From: Verrucomicrobiia bacterium
Lineage (GTDB): Bacteria; Verrucomicrobiota; Verrucomicrobiia; Limisphaerales; UBA1319
Direction: 5' to 3'
DNA: 64,000 nucleotides
Assembly: GCA_963664225.1 (NCBI GenBank)
Contig: OY760937.1
Coordinates: 1,536,001 to 1,600,000 of the forward strand
Shown: positions 44,517 through 63,972 of the stretch, in pieces
Position numbering within the stretch: position 1 is the first letter of the stretch
Layout: every line of letters begins with the position of its first letter
Program-made: the position numbers and the translations under genes
The notes under the pieces: model-generated
The model's input: the letters and a program-made list of their open reading frames with translations, nothing else
Database searches by the model: none
What the model was told of the DNA's origin: nothing

Positions 44517-44728
44517 AAGCGTACCGTTCTCTATGGCTCTACAGGTGCCAGTACCTGCTACCGACCGCTGGATAGCCGTTATTCGGGTTGTATTGCCACG
44601 GGTCAACATCTTCTTGGACTCGGGCTGAAGTGTAGCCTTTTCGCAGGACAAGCCCCGTGGCGGCACCCAGAGCCAAGTGGCCTGGCGGATACATTGCCAC
44701 GGTCATTGCCAAGTGTTGCTGGACCTCT

Positions 44729-45181
44729 TCACGCATCACAATCTCCTCTCATTGCTTTGGTTGGTTCTACTCCTGGGTGCTGAGGCACCTCGAAATGTGC
44801 GTTGTGCATTAACGGTGGGGTTCTTCGCACCCAAACCTCCGCCTTCTGGGCATCGATGAAATACGTTAGAAATGTGCCGCCTTTGCGAGCCAACTGCTCT
44901 ATCAGTCTGGCGTGCTTTGCCTGGTCCTGTCGCACAACCAGCGCAATTCGGACGCTCCGAGGCAGGCTTCGAGATAACGATTTACCAAGACCGAACACTT
45001 CGGCCCCTTTGGGGACGGATTGCATGGCAGTGACATTCACGATAATCCGGTTCCATCGTTTTGCAGCCAATAATTCCGCGACATCCTGCTGAGCCGCCGC
45101 TGTTTCGGCCAGGGACATCGTCCCATCGTGGGTAACAAACGCGCACATCGCTTCTTCAAATTGATTTATGTAATACGACAT
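44729..45181 (-). CDS. Hypothetical protein (STAS/SEC14-like)
   Basis: RIIVNVT...RIALVV...FIDAQKAEVWV pattern. Confidence 0.55.
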   Translation of the reverse strand: MSYYINQFEEAMCAFVTHDGTMSLAETAAAQQDVAELLAAKRWNRIIVNVTAMQSVPKGAEVFGLGKSLSRSLPRSVRIALVVRQDQAKHARLIEQLARKGGTFLTYFIDAQKAEVWVRRTPPLMHNAHFEVPQHPGVEPTKAMRGDCDA

Positions 45182-57932: not shown

Positions 57933-58371
57933 TTTGATTAGCCATCCGCATTCTGAGAACATCCGCACGTTGCAGATCAACTGGAGGGCGAAACGCTTTA
58001 AACCCAGATTCAGTTCCCAAGGATTCAGTGTGGAGAATTCATCCCCCGCGGCACGCAGTAAGCCAGCAACAGCCGAAACCGGCAAGGCGCGGTCGCTTGC
58101 GCCCGATTCTGAGGGTTGAAGATCGACGTTCGAAAATATTTGAAAGACGTGCTGCACCCACTGTCCCAGTGGCCAGTGCCCACCCGGACCAAATGACGTC
58201 GCTAGCCTGGCGAAACGCCAGCAACCAAAAACCATCTAATTGGATTCTTGGAAATCAGGGAGTCCAGTAACTGGTTCACTTTTACCCAGGGTCCCTTCGC
58301 CAATCCATTCATTCACTTGAATAGATTACCCTGCCCGGTCCCTTGCCGCCTATATGGTGTTGCCCACGCCA

Positions 58372-58576
58372 ATACGGTTACCCGCGTTTGGATGAACACA
58401 AGCAAGTGCATAAAGAATATTTGAGTCAGGTTGAGCAGATACGGGAAAACTCAAAGACCTCAGCGGGAGACATGGTTTACGAATTATTTTTCTTTTTAAA
58501 GGAATGGTGCTTAAATCATATCATCCAAATGGACTGCGAATATTCACTCGTTTTAAATCGTCCTGAGCAAAAATGA
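58372..58576 (+). pseudogene. C-terminal half of a bacteriohemerythrin
   Basis: YGYPRLDEHKQVH...FLKEWCLNHIIQMD; the N-terminal iron ligands are missing. Confidence 0.7.
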
Positions 58577-59010
58577 TGTGACTCAAGGATCGGGATTGTT
58601 CCTTGGACCTCAAGATACCGTTCAATTTCATTTATCAATTTCATGTTTCTGTTACGTTTCCTCAGTAAACCCTTGTCCAGGAGACGAACGAGAAGCATGA
58701 ATCCTGATCGCGATGTTTTGAATTTCAACAGACGTGAAAGCTCTCTTGTCGAGGGTATGGATTTACCATGCCTGGCTCTTTGTTAGATGATTTCAATCGC
58801 TGCCTGCTCATCGTGAGACAATTCAGGGGTTTCTTTGGAGATAGCATTGAGCTCAGTCAATATGTCACAAAGGGTACGAAGAGGCTTGCCCATATCGTAA
58901 ACCTCCTCATCGCTGCTATTCCCAGATCGACCTGCGATCCGTTTCAAATTCCTTGCGTCCAAAACAGACCCGCGATTCTGTAGATAATCAGACACCTTCA
59001 ACCTCGACAA
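58516..59010 (-). pseudogene. Interrupted ORF containing a LexA-type winged helix
   Basis: Two same-frame ORFs separated by a single TAA (58783-58785) read LSHDEQAAIEII*QRARHGKSIPSTRELSRLLKFKTSRSGFMLLVRLLDKGLLRK. Confidence 0.55.
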
Positions 59011-59043
59011 GGTTGCATAAACGGCTCAATGTCCAGTTTATTA

Positions 59044-59076
59044 AACCGCCATGAAAAAGAATATTTCATGGCGGTT
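59044..59076. terminator. 13-bp hairpin, likely terminator of the beta-helix gene
   Basis: AACCGCCATGAAA-N7-TTTCATGGCGGTT. Confidence 0.55.
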
Positions 59077-59147
59077 ATTGAAATGTCGAGCATGCTCGAT
59101 ATATCCGAAATATGGATCGACTCTATTTAATGCAATACAATGACATT

Positions 59148-60845
59148 CTATTTCCTAACAACCCATTGCGATCCATTGCTATAGACTTCTAATGCAATGT
59201 AACCTGAAGTAGTAATCGGATAAGTGAACGCAAACCCAAAGCTTTGGCTTGCCGCGTCGAATACTTGTTGATACGTTGTATTAACGGTGTTAATAATAAG
59301 GCTACAAGGACCTCCATTATAAAAACCTAACTTTAAGCGGCGTCCGGTATGCCAAGAAGGCTCAGGAAATGTAACTGTTTTAGTGGACGAACCGGAGCTC
59401 ATGAGTCCCACTTGTCCTTCTAACTCTCCTTTGTCATCGCTGAGAGTGTATGTCGTCCCAGAAAGTGTGGCCCCAGTCACTTGATCCCCACGAGTTCCAT
59501 CAACAGGAAAACCTTTTAGAGATCGCCCTTTAAAGTCATGATTATTAAACATGTAGTTACCACTAGTGTTGAAAACCGGAAAAAAGATTTGTGGGAGTTG
59601 ATTTTGAAATGCCACATCAATTAGATTATTTTCAATGACGTACTTGATGTTTTCTCCAGTGCCCAACCCCTGAGAATAACCACCAGTGAAATATAAACCA
59701 TACCAATTTGATTGAACGATTCCTATATTGGGCTTCGTAGGAACAATTATGTTAGCACGAATAATGAAATTGGTTGTGTTACCCGCGAACCACATTCCAG
59801 CGGGTTTATATACTGAGTCATTTGTTTTAGTATTATTAATTTCAATGTAGTTATTTTCAACTATGTATCTATTAAACGTTTGGCTTCCTCTGGCGTCCAC
59901 ACCAATGCGTATTCCAAGGCCTGTATCTTTAAAAACATTGTTGCGTATAAAACAATCTTCGTTTATCCAGGAATCCATGTTGAAACCCATGTTACAACCA
60001 ATGGCAACATTTCCTTCCATAGTGGCGTTCAATTGGCCGACAGCATATGCAATGCCATTTGGAACATTCAGCACCTTATTGTTGAAAAGTTTGGCTGTGC
60101 TAAGACCATTGCTTGGATTGTAACTACCAAAAGCCGAAATGCACGTCGCATAACCGCCTCCTTTCACGGAACCTTGAACAATGCAATCTTGAATGGTACA
60201 CGTACCACCATTACCAGAAGAAGTCCACATTAATGGGAACGCCTCAATCGAGGCCCCTGCTCCATAGTTTATCACTTTGACACGTTCAATAACAGTATTG
60301 TCAGCAAAAGCGTTAATACCAGATATTACCGCTGCCGTTACATTCGATCCACCCCAGTTGCAATCAAGTGTAACATCACTTAGGTTAAGATTTCGATTGT
60401 TAACGTTGTCATAGGAGGAACCGCAGGTTAATACGGCGGCACCACCACCAGTGTTAATGTTGGCAAGACGAATAATTGTATTGTCTAGACCTGCTCCTTT
60501 TATGTTAGAACCCTGTGGAATTGGAGTGTTTACATTGCCACCGCCAGTTTTGTAACAATCGCTCAATCCAGAAGGCAACAAATGAATTGTTAGATTAGAT
60601 CGCACCTGAGTGGTCCCGTCTGGTGCTTGCTGATTCCATGTCCAAGCGGCCAACCATGAATGGAAATAGCCACCACTTCCATTATATGGATCTTGCAGCG
60701 TGCCAGTTCCAATACCGTTTGTACCACGCAAGGCAAACCACACCTCACTTGTAGTCACCTGAGAATAGCAAGATACTGTTGCCTGCATTAAACACGCAGC
60801 ACCTATTGCCATTATGTACTTATGATGCCTATTTATGAACTTCAT
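59148..60845 (-). CDS. Secreted parallel beta-helix (pectin-lyase/tailspike-like) protein, low GC
   Basis: Signal peptide; GTGTLQDPY, IKGAGLDNTIIRL, Asn/Gly-rich I.NN repeats; tail TVTFP...GR...SNGSQW. Confidence 0.7.
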   Translation of the reverse strand: MKFINRHHKYIMAIGAACLMQATVSCYSQVTTSEVWFALRGTNGIGTGTLQDPYNGSGGYFHSWLAAWTWNQQAPDGTTQVRSNLTIHLLPSGLSDCYKTGGGNVNTPIPQGSNIKGAGLDNTIIRLANINTGGGAAVLTCGSSYDNVNNRNLNLSDVTLDCNWGGSNVTAAVISGINAFADNTVIERVKVINYGAGASIEAFPLMWTSSGNGGTCTIQDCIVQGSVKGGGYATCISAFGSYNPSNGLSTAKLFNNKVLNVPNGIAYAVGQLNATMEGNVAIGCNMGFNMDSWINEDCFIRNNVFKDTGLGIRIGVDARGSQTFNRYIVENNYIEINNTKTNDSVYKPAGMWFAGNTTNFIIRANIIVPTKPNIGIVQSNWYGLYFTGGYSQGLGTGENIKYVIENNLIDVAFQNQLPQIFFPVFNTSGNYMFNNHDFKGRSLKGFPVDGTRGDQVTGATLSGTTYTLSDDKGELEGQVGLMSSGSSTKTVTFPEPSWHTGRRLKLGFYNGGPCSLIINTVNTTYQQVFDAASQSFGFAFTYPITTSGYIALEVYSNGSQWVVRK

Positions 60846-61874
60846 AACCTAACAGTTTCCTTGATTACTTGATTTTGTTTATATGTTACTTCGACTCGGA
60901 CTTCAGCGCATCACAAGATGCGCATGAAATTGTTTCATAGAAAGTATTTTGTGCAATAAAGGATACTAGCGACAAACAAGGACAGACTGTATGGTACAGA
61001 ATGTCAGCCCAATTGACTTTCAAGTTATTTCGCAACTATTCTCGATTGGCCACGTCCGACTGCTAATAATTACGAACCCGGAAAACGCAAATAGTGCGGA
61101 ACGAATATATTTGGTAATTTGCAAACAATGTAACATCGCAATTGGCAATCTCTGCCGTGCCGTTTCAAATGCCCAACAGCGAGCTCACCTTGGCAGCAGT
61201 GCGATAGTTTACTCAATTCGCTCAAACTAACTGTTATACTAAAACGATTATTGTTTAATCAATTCGATGTGATTGCCATAATTTCAGTTTTGTTTCGCAA
61301 TAACATGTATCGAAGGTCCGGAATTAGTGGCACATCAACAATCTCAGTGTTCAAGTAAAAACCACATTTACGAATAGGTTATTATTTGACAACTGGTTTC
61401 ATTATCTCGTCGGATTAATTGCTAATCGTGATGACACCTATGTTAACTATGAATTATTCACAATTTATATCGTAACCTCCATCAATATAAATGTTCGAAA
61501 CATATTTACTAGATCACTAGTGTGAAGTTAAGAGCCAGACATAACGGTCTGCTTGTGTTGAGACAATGCTTTCGCAGGGAGAGCGATGACGCTAATTGTG
61601 TTTTGTTTCATGCAACAGAATATTTGACGGACAATTAACCAGGACCGGTAGGAAACACCCCCAACGCAGAACTAATTTTCCTGCCGCAGTGCTTATTTGT
61701 TGGCCAAGTTATCAAAAACAACTCTCATGTCAACCACATAATGAATATTAATGCACTTTATTTTTAGCCGGTTCACATTATTGGAATACATGCCCAAGAA
61801 TGAGACAGCCCGACTGGTTTATTACAATTATCGTGAGTTCCGTAAACGCAATTGTAACAAATTTCACCCTACGG

Positions 61875-62303
61875 CCTACATACATGGTATGTAGGGGCGA
61901 TTGCCCATCACGATTCCATTTTTCGGCTTAACCGCCGCACCACGACCTCCCCAACGTGTCGTCGGCTACCGCCCGACTTAACGCTTTTTCCCTACGGGCT
62001 TTCCGGCTAAAGGACATCTACCCGTTGTCCTTTATCAAAAATCGTTAAGTCGGCCGATAATCGCCGACACGTTGGGGGACTGGTTTTATAATAAGGGCTA
62101 TCGCCCAACCAACGTGCTCGTTATCACGACCGTTCACGCTGAAGCGTGGAGATTACGTGTTCGCGATTGCGAGATGACGCAAACGAGCAGTAGGAAAAAG
62201 CGTAGCCGCGAGAGCGGCCAAAACATAGCCACGCCGATAGGCGTGCCGACATTGCCCCAAACGGCAAATCTTGCCGTCTTCGCAAATAATTCCCACTGGC
62301 TAT
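61875..62303. other. Large multi-stem structured element (ssDNA promoter/origin or ncRNA)
   Basis: More than ten complementary stems, several nested; embedded CCGACA-N17-TATAAT (62064-62092). Confidence 0.7.
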
Positions 62304-62314
62304 CATTGATCCAT

Positions 62315-62533
62315 ATGAAAAACACAAAAAACAAACAAGCGAACGGGTTCGGGAATTTTCAAACGAAGCAGATTAGAAAAATGGTGGTCAAGCCATTGAC
62401 CCAACTAATCACTGAAAAGACGAATAGTCTCCACAAAACAAGTCGAGAGTGTTTCGAGGAAATCAAAAAGGTCGAGCAAATGATCGAGATCATCGCCCGT
62501 CAAATGGGCCGGGATTTGATGGAGCACAAATGA
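62315..62533 (+). CDS. Small basic/helical hypothetical protein
   Basis: 72 aa; stop overlaps the next ATG (ATGA). Confidence 0.5.
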   Translation: MKNTKNKQANGFGNFQTKQIRKMVVKPLTQLITEKTNSLHKTSRECFEEIKKVEQMIEIIARQMGRDLMEHK

Positions 62534-63972
62534 TCCCGGGTTTGGATGATTCAAGTTCTTCGGGTTTCAAGACCAGCCGCCATTACCTCGTTGGCTCGCT
62601 CCCCACGCGTTTGCCAGCGGCTCAGGTTACGGTTTTACGCAGAGGAGTGGCGGCTGATCCTGGAATCATGCATGAAGAACAATCCATCATCATCGGACAC
62701 CGTCAGGTTTGGAGCGAAGAGCTGTCTTTTGGAATATCTGCAGTCGATCATCGCCATCATGTTTACATCATCGGGAAGACAGGCTCGGGTAAAACGACCC
62801 TGCTTCGTAATTTGCTGATCCAACACATTGCCTTGGGCCACGGCGTTGGACTCATCGATCCACATGGCGATCTGGCTGAGGAAATTCTCAACCATATTCC
62901 GCCATGGCGTGCCGATCAATTGGTGTATTTCAATCCGGGCGACATCGAGTTTCCAATTTCGATGAATTTACTGGCTCACGTTGCGCCTGATGCTCGGCAC
63001 CTTGTTGCTTCTGGGATCGTCGGGGCCTGCAAAAGCATTTGGTCCGACTCCTGGGGCCCGAGGCTCGAATATATTCTCTACAACGCCATCGCAGCTCTGC
63101 TCGATTGTCCCAATACCTCGCTTTTGGGTGTGAATCGAATGTTGATGGACGATTCATATCGCGCTTGGGTGATCCGGCAAATCAAAGATCCCTTCATTCG
63201 AGCATTCTGGGCGGAGGAATATGCCGGATATGACGAACGGTTCAGGCGCGAAGCCATTTCACCAATCCAGAACAAACTTGGACAATTCCTGTTGAATCCG
63301 GTGATCCGCAACATTTTGGGGCAAGTCAGATGCAGTGTGGATATTCCCTTCGTCATGGACAACCAGAGGATGTTCATCGCCAACCTATCGAAAGGTCGGC
63401 TGGGCCATGACAAAGCCAACCTCCTTGGATCCTTGCTCACGACTCAATTTCAACTGGGCGCAATGGCCCGAGTGAACCGTCCCGAAGACGAACGCCAGGA
63501 TTTTTACCTGTTCATCGACGAATTCCAGTCCTTCTCCACCGATGCGTTTGCTTCAATTCTGGCCGAAGCCCGTAAATACCGATTATGCCTCACCCTCTCG
63601 CATCAATACATTGACCAGCTTCCGCTTCCCATCCGCCAGGCGGTTTTTGGCAATGTGGGAACCCTGATTGCCTTTCGCATCGGCAATATCGATGCCGAGG
63701 TGATGGCCAAGGAGTTTGGAAACACATTTGCACCAAGCACGCTTGCCGACCTTGGCCGATATGAAGCGGTCGTGAAGTTGCTGGAAAATGGAACAAACCG
63801 GGAACCATTCCTCGGTAAGATGCTCGCACCACTCAAAAATTGCATTGGCCGGAAGGAAAAGCTCATCGCCCGTTCGCGCGAGCGTTTTGCCGCATCACGC
63901 TCGCGAATTGATGAAAAACTGAACCGGTGGATGGCTTCGGCGAAAACTCCATTACCGACTGACGAATCTTGA
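62530..63972 (+). CDS. VirD4/TraD/HerA-like P-loop ATPase (type IV coupling-protein family), soluble
   Basis: RHHVYIIGKTGSGKT, IDPHGDL, WGPRLEYIL, PIQNKLGQF, YLFIDEFQ, EARKYRL, FGNVGTLIAFR. The start could also be at 62668. Confidence 0.85.
   Translation: MIPGLDDSSSSGFKTSRHYLVGSLPTRLPAAQVTVLRRGVAADPGIMHEEQSIIIGHRQVWSEELSFGISAVDHRHHVYIIGKTGSGKTTLLRNLLIQHIALGHGVGLIDPHGDLAEEILNHIPPWRADQLVYFNPGDIEFPISMNLLAHVAPDARHLVASGIVGACKSIWSDSWGPRLEYILYNAIAALLDCPNTSLLGVNRMLMDDSYRAWVIRQIKDPFIRAFWAEEYAGYDERFRREAISPIQNKLGQFLLNPVIRNILGQVRCSVDIPFVMDNQRMFIANLSKGRLGHDKANLLGSLLTTQFQLGAMARVNRPEDERQDFYLFIDEFQSFSTDAFASILAEARKYRLCLTLSHQYIDQLPLPIRQAVFGNVGTLIAFRIGNIDAEVMAKEFGNTFAPSTLADLGRYEAVVKLLENGTNREPFLGKMLAPLKNCIGRKEKLIARSRERFAASRSRIDEKLNRWMASAKTPLPTDES

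Follow-up and report, generated by a model that had tools for sequence, protein, structure and literature searches.

A conserved and covarying hairpin element at the head of a mobilization module in Verrucomicrobiota, and its possible role as an origin of transfer

Near the right end of a 64,000-nt stretch from the genome of a Verrucomicrobiia bacterium (GenBank assembly GCA_963664225.1, contig OY760937.1, positions 1,536,001 to 1,600,000; the whole stretch is referred to as the window, with positions counted from its first letter) lies a conserved non-coding block of about 380-430 nt, from ~61866 to ~62250, whose folded core is a long interrupted hairpin. The block stands ahead of a gene for a coupling-protein-like ATPase, in a region where the G+C content drops from ~0.55 to 0.42-0.43 between 58 and 62 kb; the left neighbour is a chromosomal squalene-hopene cyclase gene. 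On the + strand, the genes that follow are, in order, a 72-codon open reading frame (ORF), the ATPase, a Replic_Relax protein, a DnaG-type primase, ArdC, RadC, a 1048-aa paralogous ATPase, a helix-turn-helix protein and a large serine recombinase, the end of which overlaps a fragment of comM. The Replic_Relax protein (L001:3070-3975) is encoded 2 kb downstream of the hairpin and matches PF13814 with 85.5 bits against a cut-off of 25.3. The initial annotation of this DNA, made from the sequence, had placed the hairpin in an uncharacterised mobile element, and a relaxase, a primase and a recombinase are indeed present downstream, so that the window ends within an integrated element of mobilizable appearance.

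PF13814 is treated as the family of the MOBC relaxases in passages of two papers (PMC5357655, PMC12857230), and the relevant sections of these and of a third (PMC3424549) relate such relaxases to restriction endonucleases, with TraX of pAD1 as the prototype. For the relaxase of the window, no solved structure was matched by sequence below E 0.14, and a search of a plasmid collection gave one degraded match, on a Bradyrhizobium plasmid and without useful context. In contrast to classic coupling proteins, the 480-aa ATPase has no hydrophobic (membrane) segment, with a maximum Kyte-Doolittle 19-residue mean of 1.22; its matches to the TraD and VirD4-like models of NCBIfam fall below the cut-offs, and its relatives in the plasmid collection reach at most 39% identity. 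The ATPase and relaxase genes are separated by ~100 nt in the window and by 33-134 nt in six relatives.

When folded as single-stranded DNA, positions 61870-62110 reach -55.9 kcal/mol on the + strand (z -7.21) and -66.1 kcal/mol on the - strand (z -8.50), which is far beyond chance, and none of 200 shuffled sequences attained the native stability on either strand. Five nested or flanking stems had been proposed initially, and all five were recovered where they had been placed. The second and third of them belong to the main inverted repeat, I1, with 41-nt arms (61949-61989 and 62037-62077) that are 85% complementary. Smaller repeats are I3 (61895-906 and 62095-106, 92% complementary) and the perfectly complementary I6 (61875-83 and 61887-95) and I7 (62008-16 and 62026-34). 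The hairpin occurs once within the 5.78-Mb genome and is the largest, and the sole large, inverted repeat across the 20 kb that cover the island.

The element does not correspond to a catalogued family. No covariance model of Rfam (release 15) reached its gathering score anywhere in the window, and at E values up to 10 the sole match in 61400-62600 was to mir-8517, a meaningless hit of 18.8 bits where the threshold is 70. In the PLSDB plasmid collection nothing matched 61866-62250 at the DNA level, and literature searches, one of them aimed at Verrucomicrobia, found no published description of the element. The window contains no tRNA or tmRNA. A reading as a transcription terminator was also set aside: a T-run does follow the hairpin, yet termination leaves the unvarying arms of 20-30 nt, the branches and the directional repeats unexplained.

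Conservation of the structure was followed first by DNA and then by protein similarity. A DNA search of 40 related genomes gave copies of 74-75% identity in three, all from other families of the same order. An exact, unvarying 20-mer of the left arm was found at 34 loci of the genome collection, 33 of which, in other genomes, have the whole element; the remaining one (L013) is a chance match inside a coding sequence. By their labels, the 33 loci come mostly from metagenome assemblies of Verrucomicrobiota; a few are labelled Planctomycetes, Betaproteobacteria, Actinobacteria or candidate phyla, which may reflect binning errors. A homologue of the coupling ATPase (62-81% identity) is encoded directly downstream, on the same strand and at +313 to +840, in 26 of the 33 loci, and in all 26 the orientation of the element relative to this gene is the same. 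A Replic_Relax gene lies within 4 kb at 14 of the 33 loci, and a primase gene at five. Three loci end less than 700 nt from the element, and three others (L020, L036 and L044) have 4 kb of downstream sequence without an ATPase gene. At L015 the ATPase gene is displaced to +3777, behind an inserted, converging CBASS operon; the CBASS pair itself (SMODS and TIR-STING) occupies +292 to +2982 relative to the element. Stretches similar to the 72-codon ORF are seen only at L032 and L026.

The upstream flank cannot be aligned among loci and holds variable cargo that is often defence-like: Cas3-like helicases, HamA, a KAP NTPase, SIR2, patatin, and ImmA/IrrE with a helix-turn-helix protein, as well as a serine recombinase at two loci. 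Genes of defence type, UvrD-like ones among them, were noted within the upstream 3 kb of L022, L024, L029, L033, L037, L038, L039 and others.

When the ATPase protein was searched against 400 further genomes of the phylum, 10 gave matches. With a profile built from the alignment, the element was detected, with E values of 4e-7 to 3e-6, upstream of four of seven other small ATPase homologues, namely L049 and three distant ones, L050, L052 and L053; it was not detected upstream of L051, L054 or L059, where no homologous or clearly analogous long hairpin was seen either. L059 is a second coupling-ATPase paralogue (52% identity) in the genome of the window itself, at 374269-375519. Conservation of the structure upstream of homologous ATPases is therefore found both among the 33 loci and by way of the protein search.

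Covariation was assessed in two alignments. The first, A2, comprises the window and 30 loci, leaving out L013 and the truncated L025, L028 and L032, and has a curated structure of 67 pairs. Paired cells make up 88.5% of A2, against 84.9% in shuffled alignments, and 14 pairs have changed on both sides, against 7.0 +/- 1.6; none of 500 shuffles was as high by either measure. The second, A3, has 33 rows: the three distant copies are included, and L023, which is without hairpin H1, is left out. The structure of 58 pairs used for A3 omits the apical stem, which is present in one subtype only. In A3, 90.3% of cells are paired, against 84.3% when shuffled and 35-43% in slid controls. Changes on both sides affect 28 of the 58 pairs, against 11.2 +/- 2.2 in shuffles (none of 500 as high) and 10-17 in slid controls, and they affect 92 cells, against 21.5 and 15-27, respectively.

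The changes are spread over the structure. All 10 pairs in the variable part of stem P5 have changed on both sides, and four mini-hairpins to the right of the interval first described (62119-28, 62135-48, 62205-18 and 62230-45) covary as well. In the distant copies, stem P3 swaps A-T to C-G and C-G to T-A and has lost one pair by deletion on both arms, and H1 and stem P4 also swap in a compensatory manner. The folding of the hairpin is under selection.

The two strands are not equivalent. The - strand, the complement of the coding strand of the module, is the more stable in 31 of 31 copies of the core and in 33 of 33 copies of the main hairpin, by 7-8 kcal/mol on average and with DNA and RNA parameters alike; the three distant copies behave in the same way. 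In H1, H2, Hs and P5, mismatches of the A.C or C.A kind, which are G.T pairs on the - strand, number 32, against eight G.T pairs. P3 shows the opposite trend, with one A.C/C.A against seven G.T, all seven of them at the terminal pair. Hairpin loops of the cGNNAg class are especially stable in DNA, and among the mini-hairpins 43 such loops lie on the - strand and five on the +.

The left arm of P5 has, in addition, an alternative partner in the distal segment D. D matches the P5 left arm of its own locus more closely (9.59 of 12 positions) than the P5 left arms found elsewhere in the family (8.57), and none of 5000 permutations reached the observed value. Within the P5 left arm, covariation links the basal half to the right arm and the apical half to D, a division which argues for base pairing in two registers rather than for three copies of one protein site. 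Segment D was not found in the three distant copies.

Parts of the element do not vary at all. Across the 33 rows of A3, boxes of 6-8 nt inside the stems (GCCCGACT, AGTCGG and CGACAC) are invariant. The heptamer CTA[CT]CG occurs 3.16 times per locus on the + strand and 0.13 times on the - strand, against a background of 0.11 in the flanks. Its sites are found in Ha, Hb and the left arm, and also in a mini-hairpin that is inserted into the right arm. Three or more copies are present at 24 of 31 loci, and the window has two only; the copies are dispersed rather than in tandem. After the hairpin comes a single-stranded tract with the consensus GACTGGTTTTA, which is conserved even in the distant copies and which houses the -10-like hexamer discussed below. 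The unvarying boxes and the directional heptamers point to recognition of the DNA by a protein. As a separate observation, at L052 and L053 a TTTAACGAAGG-like motif recurs two to four times in direct orientation, 20-330 nt downstream from the hairpin; these repeats may be the counterpart of relaxase-binding repeats. The coordinates of all parts are collected in Table 1.

Table 1. Parts of the hairpin element and the adjoining ORFs, in window coordinates.
Feature	Position	Strand	Remarks
Left border	~61866		Family conservation begins ~10 nt left of H1; not alignable among loci further upstream
Hairpin H1	61875-61895		Stem 61875-83 / 61887-95, 3-nt loop; 4 of 8 pairs changed on both sides in relatives
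Mini-hairpin H2	61895-61906		GGGC-4 nt-GCCC; left half of the initially proposed outer stem; local fold in relatives, 90% of cells paired
Small conserved hairpin Hs	61924-61937		CGGC-6 nt-GCCG; 2 of 4 pairs changed on both sides
Main interrupted hairpin	61949-62077		129 bp; P3 61949-61 / 62065-77, P4 61963-71 / 62055-63, P5 61973-89 / 62037-53
Mini-hairpin P6	61990-98		Inner part of main hairpin
Apical stem	62008-16 / 62026-34		Inner part of main hairpin
Unvarying boxes	61971-78; 62048-53; 62065-70		GCCCGACT; AGTCGG; CGACAC, in main hairpin
Promoter-like motif	62064-62092	+	CCGACA 62064-69, 17-nt spacer, TATAAT 62087-92; -35 within right arm of P3
Mini-hairpin Ha	62095-62106		GGGC-TATC-GCCC; holds one directional heptamer CTAYCG; stems GGGC/GCCC, GGTGC/GCACC and GGCGC/GCGCC among relatives
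Mini-hairpin Hb	62119-28		Relatives' stems CGC/GCG, CAC/GTG or CGT/ACG
Mini-hairpin Hc	62135-48		Relatives' stems CACGC/GCGTG, CGCCC/GGGCG or CGCAC/GTGCG
Distal segment D	62193-62203		GGAAAAAGCGT; complementary to P5 left arm 61981-91 (repeat I4, 11 nt, 100%)
Mini-hairpin Hd	62205-18		Right end of conserved block; followed by a T-run on the - strand, terminator-like
Mini-hairpin He	62230-45		Right end of conserved block; followed by a T-run on the - strand, terminator-like
Small ORF, 72 codons	62315-62533	+	Stop overlaps ATPase start; without family match
Coupling-protein-like ATPase, 480 aa	62530-63972	+	Pfam TrwB_AAD_bind 38.7 bits (cut-off 20.5), DUF87

Several further observations concern the island and its ends. 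A reading of the hairpin as the phage-type attachment site (attP) of the recombinase was rejected, given that ~13 kb separate the hairpin from the recombinase gene and its junction, which are at the opposite end of the island, and that in L031 the recombinase is placed differently with respect to the hairpin. The serine recombinase ORF of L031, ~2.8 kb upstream of the element, ends in ...GWDSNPR..., which resembles a translated tRNA T-arm and suggests that a tRNA gene was the target of integration and that the attachment site lies within the recombinase gene. In the genome of the window, the only 3' part of comM (Mg_chelatase_C) is at 44607-44900, 1.55 Mb away and on the other strand, and the left junction of the island was therefore not located. 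Contigs of four sequencing runs over 20 kb yielded no excision joint. A candidate joint of 12,025 nt was discarded because it has just 23 letters on one side; it arises from dispersed copies of 61617-61685, a segment upstream of a 25-codon - strand ORF (start 61611) with copies of 75-78% identity at genome positions 380805-380869 and 1493272-1493335. Where a contig breaks off at the conserved core, the cause is another, related element in that sample. Among 23 listed sequencing runs, none was an RNA data set with this sequence.

The block of low G+C at 58000-61800 contains a 565-aa - strand ORF (59148-60845) with no match in Pfam, PADLOC or NCBIfam. A 28-nt motif made up of TTGCC/GGCAA palindromes is present in three intergenic gaps of the island, at 62252-62279 and, past the right end of the window, at 64008-64037 and 64981-65008 (copies of 100% and 83%), and elsewhere in the genome near 11355, 21296, 36845 and 397904; it looks like the operator of a regulator.

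The hairpin was originally singled out for a promoter-like motif, CCGACA-N17-TATAAT, which is present as described and matches the consensus at 10 of 12 positions. In the + strand folded as single-stranded DNA, the -35-like hexamer is paired and the TATAAT is largely unpaired, again as described. The family bears out this picture in part. The -35-like hexamer, CCGACA or ACGACA, is conserved in 33 of 33 copies because it is located within P3. A -10-like hexamer (at least four of six matches, with A2 and T6, at a spacer of 16-18) follows in 14 of the 33, and a perfect TATAAT is found in the window copy only. The outer stem that was thought to close a bubble around the -10 does not hold, in that the halves of I3 are not a long-range pair in relatives and each forms a local mini-hairpin instead. 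The - strand, which folds better in all 33 copies, carries merely the complement of the two hexamers, and its arm that would act as the non-template has no -10-like hexamer at a spacer of 16-18. On the folded + strand, moreover, the geometry of the hairpin predicts that the right arm would be the non-template and that RNA polymerase would transcribe the left flank leftwards, away from the ATPase gene. The claim of a single-stranded promoter or origin of a mobile element thus survives as far as a conserved, covarying structure in such an element is concerned, and finds no support in its promoter specifics. CCGACA-N17-TATAAT is probably an ordinary double-strand promoter of the mobilization operon that the origin overlaps; overlap of promoter and origin is usual for relaxase operons.

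An origin of transfer accounts better than a single-strand promoter for the long unvarying stretches inside the stems, for the directional repeats and for the setting beside a MOBC relaxase gene. On balance, and with moderate confidence, the most likely reading of the region is a transfer origin, possibly doubling as a rolling-circle origin, that belongs to a family of MOBC mobilizable islands seen mostly in Verrucomicrobia. The ~380-430-nt region (~61866-62250) would act in cis at the head of the mobilization module of an integrated serine-recombinase island. Unwinding of the DNA, or extrusion of a cruciform, would allow the interrupted inverted repeat and the satellite mini-hairpins to fold. 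The restriction-endonuclease-like relaxase, or a helper protein, would recognise the CTAYCG repeats, which all run one way, and the unvarying boxes in their duplex form. A nick in one strand, within the hairpin or next to it, would follow, and the nicked strand would be passed by the coupling ATPase to the mating pore of a helper. The element behaves as a site that is separable from its genes, as seen in the insertion at L015, in L020, L036 and L044, where no ATPase gene is present within 4 kb, and in the variable cargo upstream. No competing large inverted repeat was seen in the 20 kb of the island, and the gap between the ATPase and relaxase genes is short.

Several points weigh against this interpretation. 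While the gene context, the directional repeats, the asymmetry of the strands and a conserved, covarying structure are observed, the function as a transfer origin, the site of the nick and the choice of strand are deduced. The relaxase of the window and the TraX-like protein of pTEF1 show no detectable similarity by BLASTP (E 0.11) and have only the Pfam family in common. The element is upstream of both genes and its repeats are dispersed in mini-hairpins, whereas the pAD1-type origin is between the genes and has tandem repeats. With at least eight helices and an alternative helix, the fold is more elaborate than those of known transfer origins, and in this it looks like a structured RNA or like a signal for single-strand initiation. 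Most loci were collected by a pattern that requires the unvarying 20-mer, which biases the set toward conservation, and the loci are kin, so that the counts are not independent and their independence is overstated. The evidence on the strand is also divided: the - strand folds better, yet the conserved single-stranded tract is 3' of the hairpin on the +. A relaxase operon usually enters the recipient last, and this rule, together with the asymmetry in stability, favours transfer of the - strand; the tract, plus the position of the primase and ArdC genes, would fit transfer of the + strand.

The covariation and the strand asymmetry would be expected of DNA that acts as a single strand, and an initiation signal of the Frpo, ssi or sso (single-strand origin) type is the first alternative to consider, though an unlikely one. 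After transfer, the folded strand would be used by the host RNA polymerase or by the primase of the island to prime the complementary strand, to drive early transcription, or both, and such a role could coexist with a transfer origin. The pairing of the -35-like hexamer in a stem in every copy, the T-rich tract with a -10-like hexamer after it in 14 of them, the excess of cGNNAg-class loops on the - strand, and the DnaG-type primase, ArdC and RadC genes downstream on one strand are all consistent with this, and Frpo elements are described as acting in such a way in sections of PMC11541004. However, the -10 is poorly conserved and no conserved stem closes its bubble, the -35 and -10 are read on the + strand while the - strand is the better folder, and the non-template arm of the latter is without a -10. 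The element is present once per island, at the relaxase module, whereas elements of the Frpo type are reported, in those sections, in thousands of copies over the leading regions and with several per anti-defence island (PMC11541004). Recognition by a polymerase also leaves the unvarying boxes and the directional repeats unexplained.

The many covarying helices and the covarying alternative helix could also belong to a structured RNA, be it a transcript of the - strand or, with transcription from upstream, a long 5' leader to the ATPase operon, in which pairing of the P5 left arm with the right arm or with D would be a regulatory switch. The fixed orientation relative to the ATPase gene, the T-run after the long hairpin and two weak + strand promoter-like sites upstream in the window copy (61772-61801 and 61800-61828) are in keeping with transcription of the region. 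Such an RNA is nevertheless rather improbable. It has no Rfam match; conservation sets in abruptly ~10 nt ahead of H1, and no conserved promoter precedes it; the - strand has no promoter-like sites in 61500-62600 and has three terminator-like hairpins ahead of the main hairpin. Three copies are without the downstream gene and another has the converging CBASS operon inserted, and the heptamers and unvarying stems point to a protein that recognises DNA. If the promoter on the right arm is the true start, the P5 left arm is outside the transcript and cannot pair with D. Protein recognition of DNA is the core of a third alternative, a regulatory or replication region that works as a double strand only, with operators, iterons and a promoter, the palindromes being protein sites that never fold. 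The directional repeats, the boxes and the promoter-like motif suit such a region, and in parts of PMC3424549 the Replic_Relax family is said to include plasmid replication proteins as well. It is very improbable, however, given that the P5 left arm pairs in register, basally with the right arm and apically with D, rather than as a shared site. Sites that never fold would not be expected to have compensatory changes in 28 of 58 pairs, among them the loss of one pair from P3 by matching deletions, or 32 A.C/C.A against eight G.T in H1, H2, Hs and P5, and a consistently greater stability of one strand is not expected of double-strand sites.

A combination of the two DNA-based roles is also conceivable, although rather doubtful: a transfer origin whose folded single strand also acts as an initiation signal in the recipient, with a conformational switch. 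The duplex -35 and the pre-opened -10 would be read by the host RNA polymerase, or the mini-hairpins by the primase of the island, and the pairing of the P5 left arm with the right arm or with D would switch between a donor state for nicking and a recipient state for priming and early expression. If this were true, the logic of single-strand promoters would reach far beyond enterobacterial plasmids and into defence-carrying integrated islands of Verrucomicrobiota.

Interpreted as a transfer origin, the element family would be a sharply defined origin, mapped by covariation and with dozens of natural variants, on which nicking, strand choice and specificity could be tested. In the MOBC mechanism, according to passages of PMC12857230, the recruitment and rejoining of the DNA are unclear. 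On one side of the element lies a conserved mobilization backbone and on the other a cargo slot, often occupied by defence systems; the border that it marks helps to delimit such islands in Verrucomicrobiota and in other environmental phyla. Where a copy has no mobilization genes next to it, the island may have retained nothing but its transfer origin.

Among known systems, the Frpo and ssi elements that F-like plasmids have in their leading regions, as portrayed in parts of PMC11541004, are likewise long hairpins of conjugative DNA, one arm of which bears -35/-10-like hexamers, and they too adjoin genes of leading-region type such as primase and ArdC. In Frpo both the -35 and the -10 are in the stem, with mismatches, when the transferred strand folds; here the -35 is paired and the -10 lies outside the conserved helix and in fewer than half of the copies, the better-folding strand is the opposite one, and there is a single copy per island, at the relaxase module. 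Single-strand origins of the ssoA type are structured, ~150-300 nt long and active in one orientation only. In double-strand origins of the pMV158 type, the nick is in or beside a hairpin, and the direct repeats bound by the initiator are some tens of bases away. The combination of a hairpin, in or beside which the nick is predicted, with direct repeats gives the present element a similar layout, but no HUH or Rep_trans initiator is encoded here, and the nuclease is of the PD-(D/E)XK type.

The closest comparison is with the MOBC origins of the pAD1/pAM373 type. In pTEF1 (NC_004669, pAD1-like and typed MOBC), the gap between the coupling-protein and replication-relaxation genes contains nested perfect repeats of 18 and 25 nt that span 142 bp, and five 12-bp direct repeats adjoin the nested inverted repeat. 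Francia and Clewell are said to have placed the pAD1 nick inside the large repeat in 2002. According to sections of PMC12857230, the binding sites of TraX are five direct repeats at a distance of 70-120 bp from the nick, and no covalent intermediate was seen; a 2026 preprint states, in part of its text, that the origin in MOBC systems is found between the relaxase gene and the operon for the mating pore. The present element differs in being upstream of both genes rather than between them, in having its repeats dispersed in mini-hairpins rather than as five tandem 12-mers, and in having arms that are 85% complementary with conserved interruptions rather than perfect pairs of 18- and 25-nt arms. 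It also has extra covarying hairpins and the alternative helix, its hosts are Verrucomicrobiota and its setting is an integrated island; there is no DNA similarity to the pTEF1 region, and the relaxases are dissimilar by BLASTP. What the two have in common is a long nested inverted repeat of much the same span (142 bp in pTEF1 and 129 bp here), a non-coding site beside genes for a coupling protein and a PF13814/MOBC relaxase, and short repeats that run in the same direction; in pTEF1, genes for anti-defence and single-strand-DNA functions follow on the same strand.

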